Shown: piece by piece, positions 232-11,071 of the stretch | Position numbering within the stretch: the first letter of the stretch is position 1 | How the letters are laid out: the number at the start of each line of letters is the position of its first letter | Source of the DNA: Candidatus Hermodarchaeota archaeon | GTDB taxonomy: Archaea > Asgardarchaeota > Heimdallarchaeia > Hodarchaeales > Hodarchaeaceae | DNA length: 11,071 nt | Reading direction: 5' to 3' | Assembly: GCA_048886185.1 (NCBI GenBank) | Contig: JBHLKY010000047.1 | Span: 1 to 11,071 of the forward strand | The notes under the pieces: generated by a model | The model's database searches: none | Seen by the model: only the letters and a program-made list of their open reading frames with translations | What the model was told of the DNA's origin: nothing | Program-made: the position numbers and the translations under genes

Positions 232-349
232 GATCCTTGGATTCGTTATTGAAGGAATGTTAGAAAAAAAATTCTTTAGAGTATGCATAATTTAAAAAGA
301 GCGAATCCTAGAGGAATTAATGACAAAAATATAATATCCTGATGTAAAT

Positions 350-400
350 GTCGTTAAAGGCTGGTTTAGATAGGAAAAATATATACTTCGGTATATATGA
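350..400 (+). repeat. Dispersed intergenic repeat, copy A (long 51-bp form: core + AAAA + TATATAC-N4-GTATATA)
   Basis: gtcgttaaaggctggtttagataggaaaaatatatacttcggtatatatga; 43/51 identical to 2918-2968 without gaps. Confidence 0.9.
375..398 (+). promoter_or_regulatory. Putative BRE/TATA element embedded in a perfect palindrome
   Basis: A-run followed by TATATA; ATATATAC-TTCG-GTATATAT inverted repeat at 379-398; lies upstream of the methyltransferase. Confidence 0.5.
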
Positions 401-484
401 TATCATATGGTAACATGGGGATTTGCCATAATAATCTAATTAATAAATCTATTATTGCTTTTATTATGGTAGGAGAAATAATGC

Positions 485-1174
485 ATGGATGATAAGATCC
501 ATAAAGAAATGATGTGCTACTATCATGAGAGAGCAGAGGAATACGATGAACTATACAGAGGAATAGTTGGAAGGAAACGTCACATCACCCTTAACCCACA
601 AGTCTATCAACAGGATATAGCTAAAACTTCTGAAATGGTTGCAAAGTTTGGTACTGGACACTTAATTGATATTGGGTGTGGACCTGGTTTTTGGTTTCTA
701 TATTATGCACAAAATTGTAGTAGGATAACATTGCTCGATCAATCGGAAAAAATGCTTCAAGAAAGTTCAAAAAGAGTTAAACAATTAGGATTAGAAGAGT
801 CGGTCACTTTTATTCAAGGAGATTTTTTCAAAATACCTCTAGGACTCTCAGTATTTGATTGTGCTTTAACTGGATTTCTTTTAAGCCATTTTACCGTAAA
901 ACAAGAAGAGGCATTCTTTCTGAAACTCCAGAGAATTCTAAAGCCAAATGGTAAACTGCTATTTATCGATAGTGCTTGGAATAAGGAACGACAAAAGCAT
1001 AGAAAGAAAGAAGGAGTCCAAGAGAGAGTTTTGAATGACGGTCGAGTATTTCAAATATACAAACGATATTTTAACAGATTGGATATTGAGAAAATGTTTC
1101 AGAGATATAACTTCGAAATAAAATTTTATTATATTGGAAAAGCGATGATTTCAATCATTGCAGAATATCTCTAA
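485..1174 (+). CDS. Class I SAM-dependent methyltransferase
   Basis: Motif I LIDIGCGPG, acidic LLDQSEKML, GDFF, FDCALTGFLLSHF, LKPNGKLLFIDS; SD-like AGGAG at 471-475. Confidence 0.9.
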   Translation: MDDKIHKEMMCYYHERAEEYDELYRGIVGRKRHITLNPQVYQQDIAKTSEMVAKFGTGHLIDIGCGPGFWFLYYAQNCSRITLLDQSEKMLQESSKRVKQLGLEESVTFIQGDFFKIPLGLSVFDCALTGFLLSHFTVKQEEAFFLKLQRILKPNGKLLFIDSAWNKERQKHRKKEGVQERVLNDGRVFQIYKRYFNRLDIEKMFQRYNFEIKFYYIGKAMISIIAEYL

Positions 1175-1287
1175 AAAAAAATTGTATAAAAGACGTATGT
1201 TGAGATTCCTTCATACCTGTTACATTATACTTATAGAGGATACCACGAGAAGCAATATTGTTCATAATTCTGGAACAAATCTGATAT

Positions 1288-1310
1288 GTCGTCGATCGCT
1301 GGATTAGCAC
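1288..1310 (+). repeat. Degenerate copy I of the intergenic repeat (between convergent genes)
   Basis: gtcgtcgatcgctggattagcac; 17/23 identical to copy E (ttcgtaaaaggctggattaacac). Confidence 0.55.
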
Positions 1311-1531
1311 CAATAGATTTCTTGTAAAAATCAATATATAATGATTAACCTACTTTACAGTGACGATAGTGAATTTTCGTGAATTTTAAAAACTCTTTTT
1401 TTTTATTGGAGCGTGAAAAGGTTATTTGGTATATCACGAAAGGTTCAATATTCTCAAAACATGGATAACATTACAAGAATAATATTCATTAGTGTTGAGG
1501 TTGATTTAAATGAATATTTTTAATATCATGA

Positions 1532-2794
1532 TCAGTCAATTATAGACTTCAAAGACAAAATAGCTTCTTTCTCATCATTATATATACTAAAAAGCTGTTG
1601 ACTTAATTCCTCAAGTAGGTCTATTGTTTCATTCCTACTGAAAGGCCAGGAATCAATAATTTTCCTCCGAATTGACTTGATGACATCATTTTTCTCCTTT
1701 AATTGATGAATTGCGGATTCCTTGTGGTCTAGAAAAAAAGCATTATACTTCTTTACTGCTTGAGAGGCTTCTTTAAATAATTGGATTGAATCAGGAAGAA
1801 CCGCTTTAGCAAATTCAGCCCATTTATAGCTTAATTTCCTGTACCTTAATGAAACAACCCTCAATTTAGGATTGTTAATGATGACACTTGCTTCATCAAG
1901 GAAATCTGCGTAAGTTGAACGAAGACCACCACCTGATGAGAGAAAGTATTTGACAAGCCCATGTATTCTCATGAAATTGTCATAAAGTTGTCCGTGAGAA
2001 AATTTCAACCATCCTTGTTTATCTTTTAGATTAGCTAATCGCTCTGCCCATAACTGAAAAGCATCTACACGAACACCCCGCATTTTACTATATAATAATT
2101 CACGACAACAATCAGATATTCCCCCGCGTATTGCTTTCTCTAAGTTGCTTACTTTTCCAAGAGATTCAATAATAAAAGCTATGTGTCTCTTAGTGGTACG
2201 AGCTTCAATTAGTTCCTCTAAAGAAATAGAAAAAGGGTAAAGACGTTTATCTCTCAAAAAAATTCGATTTGTTTCTTCATCTATCCCATAAACAACTCCA
2301 CAATAGGTGGGAACAAGGCCGCTACCTAATGATAATGCACTATAAGGTAAAGGATACTTAATTCTCATTTCACCGAGTGAAGGAAAAATAATAATTGGTT
2401 TATCATTCTTCAAAGAATCGGAGAGGATCGTATAAAACTTTTTTTGACTACTGGTCTCATAAACGATTATTTTTAAACCAACCCTTGAGGCAATTCTTGG
2501 AATAAACCAGTCATTTGCAGAACTAACCTTAGATGGTTTATAACTAAGACGGAAGTAAAAACCTGCTTTTCCTTTGGACTTCATGCCATAAGTTAAATAT
2601 TCTGCACCAATTCCTCCTCCTATCCCCATAAGAAGTGTATCCGAAAATGGTTCATCTGTGTCAGGAATGGTAACTCGCTCATACTCAAGGAGATTCCTGA
2701 AGGCTCCAGAATTCTTTTCTGTAAAATTAAAATCTTTATATTCATCAATAAACATGTTACAATTACCAAACTTTGCTTGGTTAATAAATTTCAT
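1532..2794 (-). CDS. BtrH N-terminal / DUF4872-like protein (papain-like C39-related fold); true start may be the ATG at 2755
   Basis: FRNLL...P.T.EPFSDTLLMGIGGGIGAEY and VVYGID match the BtrH_N pattern as I recall it; C-terminal AIRGGISDCCRELL...AFQLWAERL resembles DUF4872. Confidence 0.7.
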   Translation of the reverse strand: MKFINQAKFGNCNMFIDEYKDFNFTEKNSGAFRNLLEYERVTIPDTDEPFSDTLLMGIGGGIGAEYLTYGMKSKGKAGFYFRLSYKPSKVSSANDWFIPRIASRVGLKIIVYETSSQKKFYTILSDSLKNDKPIIIFPSLGEMRIKYPLPYSALSLGSGLVPTYCGVVYGIDEETNRIFLRDKRLYPFSISLEELIEARTTKRHIAFIIESLGKVSNLEKAIRGGISDCCRELLYSKMRGVRVDAFQLWAERLANLKDKQGWLKFSHGQLYDNFMRIHGLVKYFLSSGGGLRSTYADFLDEASVIINNPKLRVVSLRYRKLSYKWAEFAKAVLPDSIQLFKEASQAVKKYNAFFLDHKESAIHQLKEKNDVIKSIRRKIIDSWPFSRNETIDLLEELSQQLFSIYNDEKEAILSLKSIID

Positions 2795-2917
2795 GGTAAC
2801 GAAGGAATTACATAAGGCGTTCTATGATGGCAAAAAATACGCAAACAATCGTTGATAGAATACCAGATAAAAAATAGGGATAAATTTGATTTGAAACTCC
2901 ACTACATCATCAAGTGT

Positions 2918-2968
2918 GTCATAAAAGGCTGGTTTAGATTACAAAAGTATATACTAGGGTATATATGA
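2918..2968 (+). repeat. Dispersed intergenic repeat, copy B (long form)
   Basis: gtcataaaaggctggtttagattacaaaagtatatactagggtatatatga; 43/51 identical to copy A. Confidence 0.9.
2943..2965 (+). promoter_or_regulatory. Putative BRE/TATA box with overlapping palindrome
   Basis: AAAAG-TATATAC-TAGG-GTATATA; the TATATA at 2948 is 39 nt before the ATG at 2987, consistent with an archaeal promoter and a short leader. Confidence 0.55.
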
Positions 2969-2986
2969 ACTGTTTCTGTGAATTAT

Positions 2987-3520
2987 ATGGCTCAACAAAC
3001 AACGCTTCATATGCTGATATGGCAGTTAGAAAGTTGGTTTCAAGAATTAGTACGAACTTTATCCGAAATTTCGGAGGAAGAGGCGAAATGGAAACCTACA
3101 ACACATTCTAAAACAGTAGACGTACTTAACCAGTGGTATGGGAAAAGAAAAGACTGGATTTCGGAACAACTTCTTGACCCCATCTCTACAATCGAATATA
3201 AAGTAGTGCATTTAGCACAATGGAAACAAAGATTTTACGAATATGCGTTCAGGGAGGGCAGCCGGAAATGGATAGACCTCGAATGTCCGGAATGGCCACG
3301 GTGCGTCGATTATTTGAAAAAAACGCAAAAAAGTGTAGTTGAGGGCTTTCAAAATCTGACAGATGAACAATTGGATGACAGGGTTCATACACGTTGGGAG
3401 GAGGACTGGTCAATGAAAAAAATTATCTCCACCTTGATCTATCACGATGCATATCATTTGGGTCAAATTAATACCATAAGAAATCTCTATAATATTTCGA
3501 ATAAAAGAAAAGCTGATTAA
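2987..3520 (+). CDS. DinB family protein (ATG at 2987 preferred over GTG at 2978)
   Basis: TIEYKVVHLAQW and terminal IYHDAYHLGQI supply the His triad typical of the DinB/YfiT metal-binding superfamily. Confidence 0.85.
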   Translation: MAQQTTLHMLIWQLESWFQELVRTLSEISEEEAKWKPTTHSKTVDVLNQWYGKRKDWISEQLLDPISTIEYKVVHLAQWKQRFYEYAFREGSRKWIDLECPEWPRCVDYLKKTQKSVVEGFQNLTDEQLDDRVHTRWEEDWSMKKIISTLIYHDAYHLGQINTIRNLYNISNKRKAD

Positions 3521-3571
3521 AATTGAAAAAATATGTCCTTGTGTATTTCCGTACAGCTCAATAATCGTCTT

Positions 3572-3597
3572 AACTTCGTAAAAGGCTGGATTAATAC
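3572..3597 (+). repeat. Dispersed intergenic repeat, copy C
   Basis: aacttcgtaaaaggctggattaatac; 3575-3594 is identical over 20 nt to 6720-6739, and the first 16 nt are identical to copy H on the opposite strand. Confidence 0.9.
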
Positions 3598-3746
3598 CCA
3601 AAATTGACACTCTAATGAGATTTGGTAAACTGATAAATATTTTGAAAGCTTTTTTATAATCCTCAAAGACTAGTCTTATAATATTAATGGAATTTAAAAA
3701 AATCGAAAATGTTTGTTTTGATAGTATCGGAGGTTAATCATTAATC

Positions 3747-4940
3747 ATGGAGAAAAATGAAAATTCTTCATTTGAGATTTTTCCTTATAGGTGGATTGTG
3801 TTAGTACTTTTTATGTTTGTTGCGATTCTCACCCAAATTATCTGGATAACTTTCGCCCCGATAATGAATGAAGTAGCTAGTTATTATAATGTAAATACTG
3901 ATGCCATTTTGTTACTAGCTGCGAGCTTTATGATTATCTACATCCCAGTGAATTTCCCTGCTTGTTGGTTAATAGAAAAATACGGGTTGAAATGGGGAAC
4001 TGGGATAGGTGTTATACTGACGGGTATTTTTGGCTTTTTAAGAGCATTCACAGGGACTAATTTTCTCTTTCTTTTACTTTGCCAGACTATGGTAGCTATT
4101 GGCCAACCTTTCGTTTTAAATTCATTTACAAAACTTGCTGTCAACTGGTTTCCAGAGGAAGAGAAGGCTACTGCTACTGGCTTAGGAACTATGGCATTAT
4201 TTATCGGGATAATAATTACAATGATTGTTACTTACCCCCTTTATGCAATGAATGGTATAGAATTTGTATTACTCGTCTACGGATTATTAGCTTTGATTTC
4301 AATGATTCTATATCTATTATTTGTTAGAGATAAACCCTCACAACCACCGAATCCCTATTTTCGTGAAAAAACATTTCAAACGAAAGGAATGAAAAATTTG
4401 TTTAGAAGCAGGGATTTCAATTTACTCATCTTTTTATTTTTTGCTGGTTTAGGGATATTCAACGCCTTATTGAGTGCTATAGATGATATTTTTATCCGAT
4501 TCGCTCCTAATACTGGGATAATTGGGGGATTGATCATATTGGGTGGAATTTTTGGCGCAGTTATCCTTTCTTCATTATCAGATAAGTTAGGTAAACGAAA
4601 AATCTTTTTGAATGTTGCTTTAATTGTAAGTACACCTTTAGCACTATTCCTAGGGTTTACTGGTACTGGGGATTTTATATTAACATTAATGTTGTCATTT
4701 ATCTTTGGTTTCATATTGGTACCTGCATTACCTGTTGGACTAACATATGCAGCTGAAATAACCCATCCTATACCAGAAGAAAGCTCCAATGGGGTGTTAA
4801 TGATGTTTGGCCAGTTAGGAGGGATAATATTCCTAATAATGCCAGATATGAATCTTTTTGGAGGGGTCTTTGGAATTGCAGCAATTGTGAGTCTTTTAAT
4901 GAAAGATTCAGATTCTTATAAAGTAAAAAATGACCAATAA
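3747..4940 (+). CDS. MFS transporter, FLVCR/SLC49-like
   Basis: Multiple TM helices; PYRWIVL, QIIWITFAPI, WLIEKYGLK, WFPEEEKATATGLG, SDKLGKRK, AAEITHPIPEESSNG; SD GGAGG at 3729-3733. Confidence 0.88.
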   Translation: MEKNENSSFEIFPYRWIVLVLFMFVAILTQIIWITFAPIMNEVASYYNVNTDAILLLAASFMIIYIPVNFPACWLIEKYGLKWGTGIGVILTGIFGFLRAFTGTNFLFLLLCQTMVAIGQPFVLNSFTKLAVNWFPEEEKATATGLGTMALFIGIIITMIVTYPLYAMNGIEFVLLVYGLLALISMILYLLFVRDKPSQPPNPYFREKTFQTKGMKNLFRSRDFNLLIFLFFAGLGIFNALLSAIDDIFIRFAPNTGIIGGLIILGGIFGAVILSSLSDKLGKRKIFLNVALIVSTPLALFLGFTGTGDFILTLMLSFIFGFILVPALPVGLTYAAEITHPIPEESSNGVLMMFGQLGGIIFLIMPDMNLFGGVFGIAAIVSLLMKDSDSYKVKNDQ

Positions 4941-4984
4941 ATCTATTTCCCCCTTCTTATTTCCAAATATTTTAGATTCACAGT

Positions 4985-5035
4985 GTTGTTAAAAGCCGGT
5001 TAAGATTAGAAAATTATATACCTCTGGATATACAT
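4985..5035 (+). repeat. Dispersed intergenic repeat, copy D (diverged long form)
   Basis: gttgttaaaagccggttaagattagaaaattatatacctctggatatacat; 38/51 identical to copy A without gaps. Confidence 0.8.
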
Positions 5036-5334
5036 TGAAACTTTACATAAATACAAGACCTAGCTCTTATTGGAATTCCCGCTTGAAAACATAAGTTCAG
5101 AACCTGCACCAATTTCTCGCTACATGTACATATTTATCACTAAATCTATGTTTGGTGTTGTTCATTGCTCTCCACTACTCCTCTTGTTAAACATCTATTG
5201 CATTAAAAAATATCTTAATATTTCATGAGCAAAAAGAACGATTTATTGCCAATCGGTGTTCCAGTTAACTTTAATTCATCTAGCGATAAGAAGTATCATT
5301 TTAAGAATCTGAATACAGAAAATGAGGTATGAAC

Positions 5335-6520
5335 ATGAAAAATCAACTAAGTTTCTTCAAATGTCTATTATTTTTTTTTTCTTATCTTTTCATACATGAA
5401 TCAAATAGGTGAGATTTCCTCATCAACAACATTAATTGAATTACAGAATCAGTCACAACAAACATATCACCCTCATCTCATTGGTGAGATACAAATTGGG
5501 ACAACCCATGAAGTTTTTGTTGAAGGTGATTATGCATATGTAACAACAAATAACGCATTAGTAATTATTGACATCAGTGATACTTCCCTCCCTAAAAAAA
5601 TCAGTGAAATCACCATGGAAGGATTTGCTCCAGTAGCTGTTGTAAGAGATGAATTAGCTTATATAGTGAATATGGCATCTCATGAGTTTCTTATCGCAAA
5701 TGTTAGCAGTCCTGAAAACCCTGATATCATTGGTAGATACTTCCCAGATTTAGACTGGGAGAACTTTGTTGACTTAATGATTAAGCTAGCACTAGCAGAT
5801 AATTATCTTTATGTTCTTAGTAATGTCTTAGATCTGATGGTTTTCAATGTTCAAGATCCAACAAATCCCATTCTAATTGGAGAGTATAATACTGGGGATG
5901 GCAATGCTGGATTGGCTATAACAAATAATGTATTATTCTACACAAACAATGAGATTGGTATAAAAGTTCTAAATATTGGAAATCGATCGGCTCCATATCA
6001 AATAGCTTCTTTGAATATGGATCGTGGGGTCTTTGATCTAGACATTCACGGAGATATTTTGTATGTGTCAAACTATTTTTTTGGTGTCATACTCCTAAAT
6101 GTTTCAGATCCATTCAATCCTAGAGTTATTAGTTCTCTTGGTGAAACACCTAATGCGTTTGATCCACCTAGATCAAGAGCAGTATCAGGTGATAAAAACT
6201 TTCTGGCAATTGCAAAAATGGAACGTGGGATCAGCTTTGTAGATGTTTCTAATCCAACTAAACCGCACGAAGTAGCTCTTTATAATGAAACACGACCCAC
6301 AAATTGTTTGTATGATGGCAAATATGTTTATATTACTGATCATGATACTAGCAGAAGCTTTCAGATCGTTGAATTCGTTACAGAGGAATCTTCGAAATAC
6401 ACTCTTTCAACAGTGGAAACTGACACAACATCTGCTACCACTCCAAGCTTGGAAATCTTGGTAGTTGGTCTGGGACTACTTATACTCATCAGATTAGGAT
6501 CTAGAAGAAAATTTGAATAA
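5335..6520 (+). CDS. LVIVD-repeat surface protein with C-terminal TM sorting tail; signal peptide (from ATG 5335) is out of frame at a T10 tract, annotated ORF starts at 5396
   Basis: Repeats such as VFVEGDYAYVTTNNALVIIDISD and LYVSNYFFGVILLNVSDPFNP; S/T-rich linker then TPSLEILVVGLGLLILIRLGSRRKFE; SD TGAGGT at 5323-5328 before ATG 5335. Confidence 0.85.
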
Positions 6521-6533
6521 ATGAGTTCAAAAT

Positions 6534-6552
6534 CCCTTTTTTTATTCTTTTT
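6534..6552 (+). terminator. T-tract, putative terminator of the LVIVD gene
   Basis: ccctttttttattcttttt, about 14 nt after the stop codon. Confidence 0.45.
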
Positions 6553-6719
6553 ATGACATATACATTCCTAATGGTTGGTATTATATGATTCAATATTGTC
6601 GCTAACAGATTTTCTTTTCTATAGCTATAGTTCATCTTCATTTCAATCAGGAGAAAGAGAATGAAGAAATAAGGGGAATTCCTTATTTAAATTTTTTGGT
6701 TCTGTTTGGAAATCCTTAT

Positions 6720-6742
6720 TTCGTAAAAGGCTGGATTAACAC
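6720..6742 (+). repeat. Dispersed intergenic repeat, copy E (between convergent genes)
   Basis: ttcgtaaaaggctggattaacac; 22/23 identical to 3575-3597. Confidence 0.9.
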
Positions 6743-6992
6743 TTATAGTACACTTCTATCAGAAGGGATCTTTAATGTATCCTTGATTATAAAAGCGAAT
6801 TTATGTCCAAAAAAATTAGCTGAGATACCACTGAAGTTTATAATACAGAATGAAATGAAAATTGTTAAAAGAGTCAAAAGGTGATTGTTACCCTTTATAC
6901 AATCTATCTTCAATTTTTCGTCTAAAAGGGAACCAAACTACAATTTATAAACTGAAGCTCTTTCTTTACTCTAAATATAAAGGAGGATGAAG

Positions 6993-8948
6993 TTACCGAT
7001 GTGATATATTAATTATTTTTTTAGCTTTTTCAAGATATTCCTCTATTTGAGCATACGCGAGCCTTTCAATCAGTGGCGCATTTTTCTTAATTAGATTCTC
7101 CCATACACTTAACTGGGTCATTAAGGAATTCTCTTCTCCAGTTACTCTTTTGTGTAGTAATTGAAGTTCATTTTCTTCGGCTGCAATCTTTGCTTGAGCT
7201 AGTAGCTGCCTCGCCAGTGAAAAATTTCCCTCAATCAAAGCTAATTTTGCTTGGAGGATTGTTACATCAATAAGCAAGGGAAAAGTATGTTGCTCCAAGG
7301 CTAATGAAGCAAGATTGGTTATTAACTGCTTGACATCCAAGAAAATTTCATTTTCTTCTGTTATTTCATCTGGGGACGATTTTAGTTCAAAAAGGAGGAG
7401 TTCACAAAGATTTAACATGGCAGTTTTATTTGAATCAGCTAAATAATGAAGTAAGTCATGTTTCACATATGGATCGTCAATTACTTCTTGAAAGAGTTGC
7501 TGAGCTCGGGCTTTATCCTTAATCCTCAGACTAGTTTTCAGTATCAAGGCTTCTGATAGTTTATACCACTGGTTAAGGTATTGTTTGCTTTGTTCTTGCC
7601 TTTCATAATACTGTTTAAACATTTCAAAATATTTCTTCGCTTCCCTAATGTCCTTATTATCGAGCATTACCGCAATTATCTCGTGATACGCTAATCCTTC
7701 AGTTTCTTGACCAAATCGTAATTTTCTTTCTCCTAAGAATTTCAAGCCTCTCTTATAATAGTCTAAAGCAGCATTGATGTCCCCTTTCGATCGATAAACA
7801 CGACCAATATGAAGGAATGTTTGACAAAAATAAAAATCATCACTCAGTCCCTCTAATAAAGGAAGAGCTTTTTGAAAGTGGATAAGTGCTAAATCCAAGT
7901 CTCCTTTAAGGTGATAAAGGTGACCAACATCTAGTAAATTCCATCCATGCACTAGCTTACGACCAACTTCAAACATTGCCATACTTCTTTCATAATACTC
8001 TAAAGCTCTATTCAAGTCTCCTTTTGAATATTGATACACATCTCCCAATAAATGGAGGCATAATTGAAGTCCATCCTTGTGATCCAGTTTTTCATAAATA
8101 GATAAACTCTTATGATAAGCATCAAGGGCGGTAGTGGTTTCGTATCTCGCATTAACATAAAAAAAGCCAATGTTAAATAATAGTTTTGATACACGATCAG
8201 TCTCTGGGAGGTTGTTAGCCAATTGCAGACTTCGCTGGACGTATATTGAAGCATTTTTTGGGTCTCCTTTTCTTTGATAGACATTAGCAAGGTTCAGGAG
8301 AGTTTCAGCTATACTCTCCCTATCTTCAACCTCCTCACTGAGGTTTAAACAATCCTGAAATATTTCTACTTGATGATCATATTTAGCTTCCATTCCAAAA
8401 TTATAGGCCAAATAAACCAATACTTCAACCATCCCCTTTTTATTTTCCAACTTTTTATGAAGCGCTAGGCTTTCTCGAAAGCATTCCTCAGCACGGGCTG
8501 ACTCCCGCAATGATAGGTAAATAATTCCCTTAATTCTTTGAAAAATGATTATCCGTTCTGTTCTTTCCAGTGGTTCTATATTTGAAATGTTCTCGAGAAT
8601 TTGTTCTCCCTCCTTTAGTAGTTGAAGATGCCCAGACAGCCTCTTTATCGAATATGTAGAAAGTATTTCATTGGCCCATCTTAAGGCCTCTAATTTCGTG
8701 ATGATAGCATCAACTAGTAATAACTGGTTTCTTGGCGCCTGATTTCGAACCATAATTAATGCTTTATCTGCAAATTCAAGACCTTTCTCGAAATTTCCTG
8801 TTTTAACTAGCACTTGACTCTTGAGGAACCATAATACCAGACGATCTTCCAAATCAATTTCACTAGTATTCATCAAATTATTAATGATCACTAAGGCTTC
8901 ATTGAACTCATTTCGGTCGATCAGTTGTTGGATTTTTAATTTGTTCAT
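6993..8948 (-). CDS. Tetratricopeptide repeat (TPR) protein
   Basis: Many helical repeats (LGDVYQYSKGDLNRALEYYERSM, IGRVYRSKGDINAALDYYKRGL, LANVYQRKGDPKNASIYVQRSL); 651 aa; no catalytic domain recognised. Confidence 0.88.
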   Translation of the reverse strand: MNKLKIQQLIDRNEFNEALVIINNLMNTSEIDLEDRLVLWFLKSQVLVKTGNFEKGLEFADKALIMVRNQAPRNQLLLVDAIITKLEALRWANEILSTYSIKRLSGHLQLLKEGEQILENISNIEPLERTERIIIFQRIKGIIYLSLRESARAEECFRESLALHKKLENKKGMVEVLVYLAYNFGMEAKYDHQVEIFQDCLNLSEEVEDRESIAETLLNLANVYQRKGDPKNASIYVQRSLQLANNLPETDRVSKLLFNIGFFYVNARYETTTALDAYHKSLSIYEKLDHKDGLQLCLHLLGDVYQYSKGDLNRALEYYERSMAMFEVGRKLVHGWNLLDVGHLYHLKGDLDLALIHFQKALPLLEGLSDDFYFCQTFLHIGRVYRSKGDINAALDYYKRGLKFLGERKLRFGQETEGLAYHEIIAVMLDNKDIREAKKYFEMFKQYYERQEQSKQYLNQWYKLSEALILKTSLRIKDKARAQQLFQEVIDDPYVKHDLLHYLADSNKTAMLNLCELLLFELKSSPDEITEENEIFLDVKQLITNLASLALEQHTFPLLIDVTILQAKLALIEGNFSLARQLLAQAKIAAEENELQLLHKRVTGEENSLMTQLSVWENLIKKNAPLIERLAYAQIEEYLEKAKKIINISHR

Positions 8949-9116
8949 CGTTTGAATTAATCATCTGTAATAAAAGTATTTTAGCTTAACTCATGGCATG
9001 GCAAAAATCGCGAAGAAAATCTTACAGAAGAGTATATCAGAGTAGATCGAATCGTTCTTGAAGTTACTATAAGAATTATAATAAAGCTGCAATTCGTTAC
9101 TTGAAATTATTTCAAT

Positions 9117-9137
9117 GTCGTCAAATTAGCCTCATAC
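9117..9137 (-). repeat. Degenerate copy J of the intergenic repeat
   Basis: Minus strand reads gtatgaggctaatttgacgac; 9117-9140 matches copy G at 17/24. Confidence 0.5.
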
Positions 9138-9211
9138 TTGATTTTTACCGTAATGTTGACATCTAATTAAATCTTGATGTAAGTTGCACAAAGGTCTTCA
9201 TACTAATTAAA

Positions 9212-9439
9212 ATGACTCCAGAAGATTTTAGGTCTCACGGTTTGTATTATGATGGAACTTATGACTACTATGTAGGGCATCATACACAATTCTCAATTCT
9301 TAAATTCGATTCAGTTACATCTGACCAATGGTTTTATTCAATAATTACCACTAAATCAGCTAGGTGGGATATTTTCATAACAATCCCTATATTTATAGCT
9401 GTTTTTGCACTGATTAAGAAGAAAAAACTATCACAATAA
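9212..9439 (+). pseudogene. Small ORF (75 aa) ending in a CTERM-like TM + basic tail; probable C-terminal remnant of a surface protein
   Basis: ...IITTKSARWDIFITIPIFIAVFALIKKKKLSQ*; no signal peptide; in-frame stop at 9164-9166 limits upstream extension. Confidence 0.5.
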
Positions 9440-9451
9440 TTGTAAGATTTT

Positions 9452-9474
9452 GTGTCAATCCAGCCTTTTGTGAC
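9452..9474 (-). repeat. Dispersed intergenic repeat, copy F
   Basis: Minus strand reads gtcacaaaaggctggattgacac. Confidence 0.85.
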
Positions 9475-9503
9475 AAATTTGACAACACAACTTATCCTCG
9501 AAT

Positions 9504-9543
9504 CACTGACTTAGCTAGACATCCACTGACTTAGCTGGACATT
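9504..9543. repeat. Tandem 20-bp duplication
   Basis: cactgacttagctagacatc / cactgacttagctggacatt, 18/20 identical. Confidence 0.9.
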
Positions 9544-9667
9544 CTATGAACACAATGAGAAAATTGTTGAATCGAATTTCACAATTTCCCCTATTTCTGG
9601 ATTTATAATATTTTCTTTTGTTTCGCTGTTTTCAGTTTTACTTGTTCGTCGTAAAAGGTTTATTTGA
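9530..9667 (+). pseudogene. Start-less fragment encoding a second CTERM-like sorting tail (not in the ORF track)
   Basis: Manual translation: LSWTFYEHNEKIVESNFTISPISGFIIFSFVSLFSVLLVRRKRFI*, preceded by in-frame TGA at 9527-9529. Confidence 0.55.
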
Positions 9668-9671
9668 CGAC
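9648..9671 (+). repeat. Degenerate copy G of the intergenic repeat (overlaps the RRKR codons of the fragment)
   Basis: gtcgtaaaaggtttatttgacgac; shares TCGTAAAAGG with copies C, E and H. Confidence 0.55.
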
Positions 9672-9701
9672 ATTATTCAGTTTTGTATGGTATATGAAAG
9701 A

Positions 9702-10508
9702 TTAAGCCTTAGCACTAACAATAAGAAACCGATTGGGTAGAGCACCTTCTATTTGATGGTTGATTTTATATCTCCTCAAATAGGTTACAAACTCAACAAC
9801 CCCATCTATGCAATTTACTGAGAATCCTTTCTGGCTCAATATTATGGCCAGTTCCTCTCCAGTAAAAGGAGTATGTGATTCTTTCATTTCTTCGTCTTCC
9901 AGAGCAGTACCCAATGACCAAATCTTTGTCAAGAAATCGTAGAGATCGCAAAGAGTCATTCTTGTCCAACTGTTTGAAAGAACCTCAAACTCAATATCTC
10001 GAACTTGAAAGAGAGTTTGAAACCGTTTTAGTTTCTTAAACATACTGTTTGAGAGTCTGAGATCTATATGTCCCTCACCTGGACTCTGATGGTCTAAGAC
10101 TATTAATATTCCTCCTTCCTTCAGTACTCGTTTAACTTGCTTTATCGTATCAAAAAACCCTTCTTTACCTGAAAAACAGAGTACCTCGCTAAAAAATTGA
10201 ACTCCAACCACAACATCAAAAGTATTTTCTTTAAAAGGAATTTTAGGTGCCATTCCTTGAACCAAAGAGGAGCTACCTATATTTGGTGTTCTTACCTGAT
10301 GAGTTAACATGTACCATGACATATCCATTCCGATAACTGATGTTTGCGGAATTTGCTCAACAATCAGCCACCTAAGCAGACCTACTCCACAACCTATATC
10401 TAGAATTCTTGAAGCATCATTCGGAATAAGGTCGATAACCTTCTGTAAAAACTGCTTTCGATATCTGTTTCCCATCAGCTGGGCCATTTGTTTCTCGCTT
10501 GCAGACAT
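9702..10508 (-). CDS. Class I SAM-dependent methyltransferase
   Basis: ILDIGCGVG, GMDMSWYML, IPFKENTFDVVVG, RVLKEGGILIVLD. Confidence 0.9.
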   Translation of the reverse strand: MSASEKQMAQLMGNRYRKQFLQKVIDLIPNDASRILDIGCGVGLLRWLIVEQIPQTSVIGMDMSWYMLTHQVRTPNIGSSSLVQGMAPKIPFKENTFDVVVGVQFFSEVLCFSGKEGFFDTIKQVKRVLKEGGILIVLDHQSPGEGHIDLRLSNSMFKKLKRFQTLFQVRDIEFEVLSNSWTRMTLCDLYDFLTKIWSLGTALEDEEMKESHTPFTGEELAIILSQKGFSVNCIDGVVEFVTYLRRYKINHQIEGALPNRFLIVSAKA

Positions 10509-10640
10509 CCTGATTTTGAGGCTGACTTCATTTTATTTTAACTTTGTCAAGTGGGTAAATATTTGCTTCTCAGTGGTGACAATTTCGTTTAAGTAATCCA
10601 TGATAAGTCGTTCATCTGTCACAGAGTGACACCAAGAGGG

Positions 10641-10663
10641 TGAAACTAGCCTTTTACGAAGTT
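10641..10663 (-). repeat. Dispersed intergenic repeat, copy H
   Basis: Minus strand reads aacttcgtaaaaggctagtttca; first 16 nt identical to copy C. Confidence 0.88.
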
Positions 10664-10791
10664 GGGAATTAAGAATTATCTCTTAATGTAAGGTTTCTCT
10701 AGGAAGAGGAAAAAGATTTGGTAATGCCTTGAATCACAAAATATAATGTTATGCATTTTTGAGTGCAATCCTTTAGTCAATCTTATATTAT

Positions 10792-10807
10792 GGTTGCATA
10801 AGCAACC
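10792..10807. promoter_or_regulatory. Palindromic putative operator GGTTGC-ATAA-GCAACC
   Basis: Perfect 6-bp arms with a 4-nt spacer, just after TTATATTA, in the divergent region between the methyltransferase and the ORF at 10923. Confidence 0.45.
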
Positions 10808-10922
10808 GATTTTTTTTCAAATCTAGAAAAACAACTTTAGATCACGAATATAGAATTGGAAGCTTTGCCCCATTGGCATGATTTTTGAATTTAAAAATCA
10901 AATTCTAAATAGTGATTTATTT

Positions 10923-11071
10923 ATGGTAATAGAACTCAGGATAGAAATTCAACATGATTCTCCTCACCTTAATTTTTCAAAATCCTTTATAACGAAAGAG
11001 ATTTATGGTTATTGCAATTCAAAATTTGATATATTAATGATTCCAGGTGAAATTAATGGGAAAAATTTGGA
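10923..11071 (+). CDS. 5' partial ORF, possibly the N-terminus of an HTH_10/bacterio-opsin-activator-like regulator
   Basis: Manual translation, open to the window end: MVIELRIEIQHDSPHLNFSKSFITKEIYGYCNSKFDILMIPGEINGKNL; the IQHDxP...CN...D pattern recalls archaeal HTH_10 regulator N-termini. Confidence 0.4.
   Translation, partial: MVIELRIEIQHDSPHLNFSKSFITKEIYGYCNSKFDILMIPGEINGKNL

Follow-up and report, generated by a model that had tools for sequence, protein, structure and literature searches.

What is the role of a short DNA motif that recurs in nearly every gap between the genes of an archaeal contig, when the genes themselves are small and unrelated? Contig C47 of a Candidatus Hermodarchaeota archaeon genome (G000 below; genus Hodarchaeum, Hodarchaeales, Heimdallarchaeia) raises this question, and the entire contig, 11,071 bp long, is the window analysed here. 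G000 is a 4.84 Mb genome in 75 contigs, with 35% G+C and a completeness of 96%; in what follows G001 to G021 and similar labels denote relatives, C a contig and L a fetched locus stretch. An earlier note, made from the letters of the window, had read the motif as a recombination or insertion site that bounds gene modules in a non-canonical cassette array. That inference came through the refutation tests which the note itself had named, and our results support it: we consider it likely that the motif is a crossover (att-like) site between the units of a mobile gene-cassette array specific to Hodarchaeum.

When the window is read copy by copy, ten motif copies are found where the earlier note had placed them, and all ten fall outside the long open reading frames (ORFs). 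The pattern TAAAAGGCTGGWTTA, with up to three mismatches allowed, has nine matches in the window against 1.36 expected, and none of 200 shuffles reaches nine; shuffled and reversed controls are near zero, so the possibility that shuffled DNA yields such matches just as often falls away. Alignment of 258 copies gives a site of about 25 nt that reads aA-C/T-T/G-Y-C-G-T-M, then AAAGGCTGG, then W-T-T-A-R. The core AAAGGCTGG is asymmetric, and each of its positions is 97–100% conserved. The left arm takes two forms, ACTYCGTM or nTGTCGTM, and so does the right arm, which is either short (ATTAACAC-like) or long (TTTAGAT, then AAAAGTATATAC-N4-GTATATAC); the long form reads TTTAGATtacAAAAGTATATACtagGGTATATAc and brings the entire long site to about 52 nt. 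The four combinations of left-arm and right-arm type occur 33, 27, 22 and 24 times (Fisher p = 0.56), and since there is no association between them, the arms reassort freely around the core. A TATA-like tail travels with the long right arm (51 of 98, against 4 of 105). The arrangement GTATATAC-N4-GTATATAC was considered as a conserved hairpin and dropped, as the 8-mer is itself palindromic and its variants are part "direct" and part "compensatory". In outline the site consists of weakly inverted arms (TAAA...TTTA, TGTC...GACA) around an asymmetric spacer of 7–8 bp, with a faint dyad, TAAA-AGGCTGG-TTTA, whose putative spacer contains the breakpoints described next.

Homology between species breaks inside the core AAAGGCTGG. 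At site C of the window (3568-3598), the relative G006 (L025@12350) is about 95% identical over 70 non-coding nt through ...ACTTCGTAAAAGGCTGG (GGCTGG) and unrelated from the next base, and at site B (2910-2965) the relative G020 (L028@103) has unrelated upstream DNA and a different left arm and is identical from AAAGGCTGG onward. Whole units end in the same manner. Unit 1, which encodes the methyltransferase MT1, is 92% identical over window 347-1303 to G003:C109:5137-6092 with no homology outside, and the MT1 homology with G003 stops at the degenerate site 1287-1311. Flanked by copies at both ends, the DinB unit (window 2922-3603) has counterparts in G006:C115:11699-12380 (96% identity) and G020:C20:111-698 (84%). 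The MFS gene has lone matches of 84–90% (3741-49xx) in seven relatives, on different contigs, and in G021, G019 and G003 its homology ends at 4981-4999, at site D. The LVIVD unit is 88% identical to G010:C1:905042-906264, where it adjoins two motif copies. For the TPR unit, identity is 89% with a stretch at 3.09 Mb in G010 and 81% with G013:C142, in which its position is unchanged, about 240 nt past a plus-strand copy. Among 122 distinct cross-genome alignment ends at the array loci, 18 lie at a copy, compared with 2.6 for random positions, an expectation that takes no account of the general tendency of alignments to end between genes. In other samples, from sediment and mangrove, metagenome contigs part from the window at 3596 (run X2), 2922/2925 and 2962/2965, and a contig of run X6 begins to match it at 9649. 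Thus relatives' homology does break exactly at motif copies, the point on which the earlier note had staked its reading. In one sample the DinB unit has twice its neighbours' depth. A lone "opposite strands" joint at 4081/4207, from run X5, falls within the MFS gene and has no connection with the motif.

The order of the units is a mosaic. Each unit of the window has close relatives elsewhere, none of which keeps its window neighbour, and in the complete genome G010 the relatives of window units are scattered at 0.9, 3.09, 3.68 and 4.46 Mb. Units shared between species do keep their direction with respect to the motif, as seen for a two-gene unit of L019 and L030, a five-gene unit of L017, L024 and L029, and the TPR unit. 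They are also more alike than the genomes that carry them: identity is 96% for the DinB unit where rpoB is 76% identical (G006), 92% for the MT1 unit where rpoB is 83% (G003), 89% for TPR and 88% for LVIVD where rpoB is 81% (G010), and 84–90% for MFS where rpoB is 76–83% (several genomes). A syntenic core flank at 4–9 kb of C15 is 69–77% identical between species. Since the units exceed both rpoB and this core flank in similarity, the comparison points to recent exchange of units within the genus. The same C15 core flank adjoins an array in both G000 and G010 (at 0.9 Mb), with different units, so that at least one array stands next to the same conserved genes in both.

We examined the layout of the arrays in about 630 kb of copy-bearing loci from 12 genomes, with copies counted at 12 bits or more. 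Although 76% of this DNA is coding, 126 of the 130 copies are intergenic, and 92 of 97 adjacent pairs are co-oriented. The median spacing of copies is 2.0 kb, a figure that, like those for clustering, is biased upward because the loci were picked for holding several copies; units mostly contain one or two genes. More than 60 copies are present in G008, where an all-plus run begins at 217.9 kb and continues for about 55 kb, as far as the contig end (273.6 kb), and where C63 has a plus run followed by a minus run, with the switch at 43/50.6 kb. The same polarity is kept in 49 metagenome fragments. Inside the units 104 genes are sense and 127 antisense to the motif; all genes of L019 are antisense, and the copy at L014:16714 lies within a 77-nt gap between convergent genes. 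Since genes occur on either strand and copies sit between convergent ends, the motif is no plain promoter, terminator or operator. The earlier note had argued in the same sense from copies between convergent 3' ends, and the random gene direction and the convergent-gap copies in relatives bear it out. It had also observed that six copies lie co-oriented upstream of a gene, which is true of the window, but genus-wide the direction is about 50:50 and the window pattern is a local accident. The cargo is diverse: 352 array proteins fall into 278 clusters, and 43 unit proteins match 57 Pfam families, among them PIN, endonuclease V, APH, peptidases, Kelch and Hcp. Tandem copies 51–94 nt apart form gene-less mini-units, in which a spacer of about 22 nt often separates a long right arm from the left arm that follows; they occur at L020 1290-1380, at L222 3865/3938, at G000:C37 8432/8483, and at G008:C39 49491/49585 and 66680/66742 (offsets within the fetched stretch 200,001-273,563).

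The motif is genus-specific and confined to these variable accessory-gene arrays, being absent from core regions. Scans of the whole of G000 and of relatives, which the earlier note had suggested, find it limited to accessory-gene arrays; by a profile, G000 contains only about 20 good copies in 4.84 Mb, confined to C47, to the small contigs C37, C52, C53, C61 and C64, to the last 11 kb of C7 and to the first 500 bp of C15. It does not lie upstream of conserved, syntenic genes and has no fixed gene direction, which disposes of a regulon as the earlier note had defined it. Among 40 relatives scanned, an 18-mer with up to two mismatches is found in 18 of the 21 that belong to Hodarchaeum, where it reaches 29 copies per genome, and at most once in each of 19 genomes of other genera; a reversed-pattern control gives about zero. 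Within the genus, G008, G005, G019 and G013 are rich in the motif. In a collection of 185,579 species, several copies occur only in records of Hodarchaeota, Heimdall B3_Heim and "Promethearchaeota" DZ2M.341, and single matches elsewhere are as numerous as expected by chance. Viral contigs give 25 single matches, which is chance level, and a Joint Genome Institute (JGI) metagenome scan with the long form gives none; the 49 further metagenome fragments (about 250 kb) were found with the short pattern.

How might such arrays arise? Each site would join two units, its left arm being the tail of the unit upstream and its right arm the head of the one downstream. Recombination within the core would let units, each with one to three genes on either strand, enter arrays, leave them and pass from species to species; if insertion repeatedly took the same direction, the sites would end up as direct repeats, and their strict polarity would be explained. 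We infer that the exchange is catalysed site-specifically and is not recombination at a short homology, and that an enzyme acting in trans, most likely a tyrosine recombinase, is responsible; this class is favoured because it is the only recombinase class detectable in a 96%-complete genome and because the outline of the site is like a simple tyrosine-recombinase or dif-type core. G000 has three tyrosine recombinases, one XerA-like (C4:43052-43534) and two of a second class (on C27, at 43050-43943, and on C70; G010 has a gene of this class at C1:737696-738529), none of them near an array, and no Resolvase, Y1_Tnp, IS110 or TnpB domain was detected in it. An XerA-like gene is present in 19 of 22 genomes of the genus searched. 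The neighbourhoods of the C27, C70 and C4 integrase genes contain no motif-like att sites, and no recombinase is found among the genes present at array starts, at direction switches and in the flanks in G010; array heads, switches and flanks carry a subtilase, a Ras-like GTPase, a His kinase, MttB, GH5, a beta-lactamase-fold protein and others. A 165-aa protein at the G008:C63 switch was considered as a recombinase and rejected, as it belongs to a multi-copy family unrelated to the arrays.

Xer-dependent elements offer one model for such a system. A Xer/dif site of 28–30 bp comprises two imperfectly inverted arms of about 11 bp and a 6–8-bp spacer for strand exchange, and the integrative mobile elements exploiting Xer (IMEX) and the pdif modules of Acinetobacter plasmids depend on Xer. 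Such elements, like the putative arrangement here, have gene modules bounded by short sites for a chromosomal recombinase, with a host tyrosine recombinase acting in trans, and with a host enzyme of this kind no integrase would need to be linked to the arrays. With its asymmetric spacer, the TAAA-N7-TTTA of the motif recalls the hallmark TAA-N6-8-TTA of archaeal dif sites, including that of T. kodakarensis (PMC11840125; for XerA/dif in archaea see also PMC2958812), though this is a resemblance only: the arms of the motif are weakly inverted and lie one to two bases further apart than those of known dif sites. Moreover, motif sites are direct repeats, unlike those of pdif modules, which alternate in direction, and XerA-like genes are also present in motif-free members of the genus.

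Several observations weigh against a dedicated crossover site. The core is the only sequence common to all sites, and homologous recombination at a short repeat would produce the same breakpoints and the same reassortment of arms. No excised circle and no pair of empty and filled sites was seen, and the Logan contigs list no circular junction or clean deletion joint at the copies. Contrary to the clustering near a recombinase for which the earlier note had proposed looking, about 630 kb of genomic array loci and about 250 kb of metagenome fragments hold no recombinase gene in or beside the arrays, except on G012:C160, where a broken integrase of the second class lies 1.3 kb from a copy. The XerA-like gene also occurs in the copy-free genomes G001 and G016, the dyad symmetry of the site is weak, the direction flips in five of 97 adjacent pairs (once in the window), and the choice of loci inflates the figures for spacing and clustering as stated above. 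Finally, the long right arm resembles an archaeal transcription factor B recognition element (BRE) and TATA box, and at site B the TATA lies about 35 nt before the DinB ATG, an ideal geometry, so that some regulatory role of this arm is possible. Several of these points also speak for the main rival explanation, which we regard as unlikely, namely that the motif is a regulatory or insulator module (a transcription-factor site, with BRE/TATA in the long form) and that the shuffling results from ordinary homologous recombination with no dedicated recombinase, for example after uptake of DNA from relatives. The BRE-like and TATA-like sequence AAAAGTATATAC, the six window copies that precede co-oriented genes, the promoter geometry of site B, the lack of a recombinase linked to the arrays and the position of the breakpoints in the sole shared sequence, as homologous recombination predicts, all agree with it. 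The orientation of the genes does not: their direction is random (104 sense, 127 antisense), the next downstream gene is sense in 16 cases and antisense in 19 for the long form and 12 and 18 for the short form, and many copies lie between convergent 3' ends. Nor is there a fixed distance, as 47 to more than 1000 nt separate the long form from the next sense start codon and distances overall range over 4–1100 nt; with these statistics the long right arm finds no support as a promoter. One would not expect a regulator site to hold a single direction through 55 kb whatever the gene strand, the flanking genes are not conserved between species, and the presence of both arms on every unit, whatever its origin, is left without an account.

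Two further explanations take the copies as traces of something other than unit exchange. We think it quite improbable that they are the ends or solo remnants of a small non-autonomous element, like a miniature inverted-repeat transposable element (MITE), that inserts in intergenic accessory DNA. A short, conserved, intergenic, multi-copy and genus-specific motif would fit such an element, as would the tandem copies 51–94 nt apart with their gene-less units and the unrelated repeat of about 280 nt that adjoins one copy on C15, but homology at the sites is one-sided, with one flank matching as far as the core and the other unrelated, whereas after independent insertion the two flanks should either both be orthologous or both not. 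No defined element framed by terminal inverted repeats or target duplications is seen, a search of G000 for the IS200/IS605 (Y1_Tnp), IS110 and TnpB families detected none of them, and strict co-orientation over tens of kb is unexpected for transposition. It is very improbable indeed that the motif is a polar chromosome-organising signal similar to Ter, to FtsK-orienting polar sequences (KOPS) or to an SMC roadblock, with a direction that follows replication or segregation. The asymmetry of a site of about 23 bp, its single direction over long stretches and the convergent switches (window 6.7/9.5 kb; G008:C63 43/50.6 kb) would suit such a signal; it should, however, not be missing from core regions and restricted to accessory arrays, the G010 clusters at 0.3, 0.9, 1.5, 2.0 and 4.5 Mb lack two-arm polarity, divergent switches occur too, and the unit mosaic with its high between-species identity would go unexplained. 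A crossover site between exchangeable units thus remains the reading that we prefer.

Are these arrays then integrons? An integron attC site is an imperfect inverted repeat of 55–141 nt (R''-L''...L'-R') that folds as single-stranded DNA; its RYYYAAC (R'') and GTTRRRY (R') boxes include the crossover point G/TT, and IntI, attI and the promoter Pc stand at the head of the array. As the earlier note had said, the attC fold-back is absent at the motif, which lacks a shared partner arm, folding and R boxes. No copy has a shared partner arm among the 25 longest inverted-repeat pairs (of 72 found within 200 nt), and six sites with their flanks fold as single strands no better than shuffles (z values of -1.1 to +1.5), with the core unpaired. 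The consensus aACTYCGTM AAAGGCTGG WTTAR contains neither RYYYAAC nor GTTRRRY, the nearest strings, GATTAAC and GTTTAGA, each breaking the pattern, and the breakpoints map to AAAGGCTGG, where the integron crossover is G/TT. The C27 and C70 recombinases, the two of the three in G000 that were scanned, score at most 60 bits on the integron-integrase model TIGR02249, whose cut-off is 265, and apart from the broken integrase on G012:C160 there are no tyrosine-recombinase homologues on the array loci or the 49 metagenome fragments. In their organisation the arrays do resemble integrons, in that co-oriented sites bound small unrelated gene units which are shuffled and horizontally shared.

A published integron survey bears directly on this genus. 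Ghaly et al. 2022 (PMC9668308) reported a lone IntI and a three-attC cluster of attC sites lacking integron-integrases (CALIN) in Hodarchaeum sp003144275, the one Hodarchaeum in their list, which is G002 here; our arrays fall outside that survey. The DJ-1/PfpI cassette gene of this CALIN maps to the 6.7-kb contig G002:C16 (L327), which is motif-free and has textbook ATAAC...GTTAT fold-backs at 3977-4114, 4794-4868 and 6228-6711 between cassette-like genes. The only IntI-like fragment in the genus lies on G002:C77 (L324), also motif-free, where the C-terminal third of a 773-aa ORF at 2992-5313 matches integron integrases (TIGR02249, 186 bits, model positions 88-265); the rest of this integrase runs on in another frame, so that it is fused, frameshifted or foreign to the bin. 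Since the attC and IntI-like parts are on motif-free contigs, classical integron parts and motif arrays are separate in the genus. Among the closest known systems are sedentary chromosomal integrons and CALINs, the archaeal ones (PMC9668308) included, which similarly form long co-oriented arrays of sites with small unrelated accessory units, PIN toxins included, that are shuffled and common to several species, often with no integrase nearby, with part of the site at each unit end and the crossover in a short conserved core. Motif arrays differ from them in lacking the attC fold-back, IntI, attI and Pc, in having a simple duplex-type sequence of 25 nt whose primary sequence is kept across more than 20 species, and in carrying genes on either strand and, in many units, a promoter-like right arm of 35 nt.

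Integrative islands, such as tRNA-anchored islands and tycheposons, grow by successive integrations at one att site; in tRNA-anchored islands the 3' end of a tRNA or other gene at the island head supplies the att core, and the modules carry integrases. In these, too, direct repeats of the att core flank modules with hybrid arms, variable cargo and modules common to species, and a motif array stands beside the same conserved genes in G000 (C15) and G010 (0.9 Mb). Unlike such islands, motif units have no integrase and no tRNA or other gene end that provides the core (neither the window nor 12 array loci contain a tRNA or tmRNA anchor), and they are small, about 2 kb, and far more numerous, with more than 60 sites in G008 and several loci per genome. 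We advance, tentatively, the wider proposal that Hodarchaeum may have its own gene-capture system, which arose independently of integrons and in which a Xer-like or unrecognised recombinase, encoded on the chromosome, would act in trans on an asymmetric duplex site of about 25 bp; the polar arrays take up more than 150 kb in some genomes, and their units, with one to three genes each, would pass between species. No description of these arrays was found in the published literature that we searched.

Hodarchaeum belongs to the archaeal order placed closest to eukaryotes, and gene flow in Asgard archaea is central to the debate on how the eukaryotic gene set was assembled, a process for which few mechanisms are known. 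If our interpretation is correct, this genus would store accessory genes as exchangeable units behind one short, recognisable site, and these units would cross species boundaries, being up to 96% identical where rpoB is 76%. The acting recombinase, the size of the shared cassette pool, and whether integron-like capture evolved several times with different site chemistry would all become testable. In practice, a 17-nt pattern serves as a marker that finds the arrays in metagenomes, and the motif could be a target of the polymerase chain reaction for cassette recovery, as attC has been.

The individual copies of the window differ in form and strength. Site A, of the long form (342-397, motif 349-371, plus strand, profile score 23.9 bits), has left arm TGTCGTT, core AAAGGCTGG and right arm TTTAGAT followed by AAAAATATATAC-TTCG-GTATATAT. 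Next comes the degenerate plus-strand site at 1287-1311, which by reading of the sequence consists of TGTCGTC, a variant core GATCGCTGG and right arm ATTAGCAC; this variant core class recurs in G008, L016, L027 and L029 as CGTC[CT]ATGGCTGG. Site B is of the long form (GTGTCATA AAAGGCTGG TTTAGATTACAAAAGTATATACTAGGGTATATAT; motif 2917-2939, plus strand, 24.5 bits) and has dozens of 35–50-nt matches in relatives. Sites C (ACTTCGTA AAAGGCTGG ATTAATAC; motif 3574-3596, plus, 29.5 bits) and E (ATTTCGTA AAAGGCTGG ATTAACAC; 6714-6742, motif 6719-6741, plus, 27.6 bits) are of the short form and share the 20-nt run TTCGTAAAAGGCTGGATTAA, as had been noted before, and site D between them (4984-5032, plus) is a degenerate long form, TGTTGTTA AAAGCCGG TTAAGATTAGAAAATTATATACCTCTGGATATAC, with two core mismatches. 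On the minus strand are a short-form site at 9451-9476 (TTGTCACA AAAGGCTGG ATTGACAC; motif 9453-9475, 17.6 bits), which shows the end symmetry TGTCA...TGACA, and a site at 10639-10666 (ACTTCGTA AAAGGCTAG TTTCACC; motif 10641-10661, 21.4 bits). Of the four copies that the earlier note had called degenerate, those at 1287 and 4984 are a variant-core copy and a clear long-form copy, and those at 9117 and 9647 are only half-sites, a left arm and part of a core. The first of these (9117-9138; left arm TGTCGTCAAA, then a broken core), for which the minus strand had been given, reads better on the plus strand and is the probable end of unit 6. The second, at 9645-9669 on the plus strand (7.7 bits), is a half-site or palindromic relic: from 9647 a left arm and four bases are followed by the arm's own reverse complement (CGTCGTAAAAGG TTTA TTTGACGAC). 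The two half-sites lie at the meeting point of the plus and minus runs of sites, and an aberrant event there may have left them as scars.

The gene calls of the earlier note hold against Pfam, which assigns the seven long ORFs to two S-adenosylmethionine (SAM) methyltransferases, BtrH_N/DUF4872, DinB_2, MFS_1, LVIVD repeats and TPR. Unit 1 (398-1286) encodes the class-I SAM methyltransferase MT1 (coding sequence 485-1174, plus strand; Methyltransf_11/25), and unit 2 (1312-2909) the BtrH_N/DUF4872 protein (1532-2794), on the minus strand and so antisense to the sites. Units 3 to 5 are on the plus strand: a DinB_2/mycothiol-S-transferase-like protein (2966-3567, coding sequence from 2978 or 2987 to 3520), the MFS transporter (3599-4983, coding sequence 3747-4940) and, from Pfam and the ORF list, an LVIVD-repeat beta-propeller surface protein (5033-6713, coding sequence 5396-6520). 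Unit 6 (6743-9116) holds a 651-aa TPR protein (6993-8948) on the minus strand, antisense to the plus sites, and a minus-strand unit follows with the second SAM methyltransferase (9702-10508). Contig ends share 77-mers that join C47 to C64 and C64 to C53, so the window belongs to a larger, fragmented region.

At the LVIVD gene, a signal-peptide-like start at ATG 5335 (MKNQLSFFKCLLFFF...) loses its frame in a T-run before the ORF at 5396, and contigs of runs X4 and X6 have a 2-nt "TA" insertion after 5371 that, by count, would unite both LVIVD parts in one frame; the letters of the window at 5335-5400 may thus reflect either a strain variant or a mistake of assembly. Within the second methyltransferase gene, depth in run X4 jumps to 107 at 9900-10360, compared with about 10 otherwise, and many letters vary there; an 88% copy lies at G000:C53:4115-4212, and the segment is common to other, more abundant organisms or copies. 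Rfam gives a single sub-threshold snoRNA match on the window, away from the motif. The right end of the window (10756-11071) is 77–84% conserved in G008, G021, G014 and G010 and also in the motif-free G001, and runs on into C64 through the 77-nt overlap; the ORF that begins at 10878 has relatives within arrays of G006 and G019. Giant homologous ORFs cut by contig ends lie near copies at G000:C37:1-7452 (at least 2483 aa) and G000:C53:1-3518 (at least 1172 aa), both with the same 30-nt flank just before the motif, and a relative at the start of L014 (G010) lies 8.7 kb before an array. The non-coding stretch of about 280 nt mentioned above (L046, G000:C15, 563-845), which adjoins the C15 motif copy, recurs at 76–94% identity in at least eight places in G010 (276-317 kb, 2.09 Mb, 3.93 Mb) and in G012, G005, G021 and G008, and is a second dispersed repeat family, unrelated to the motif.

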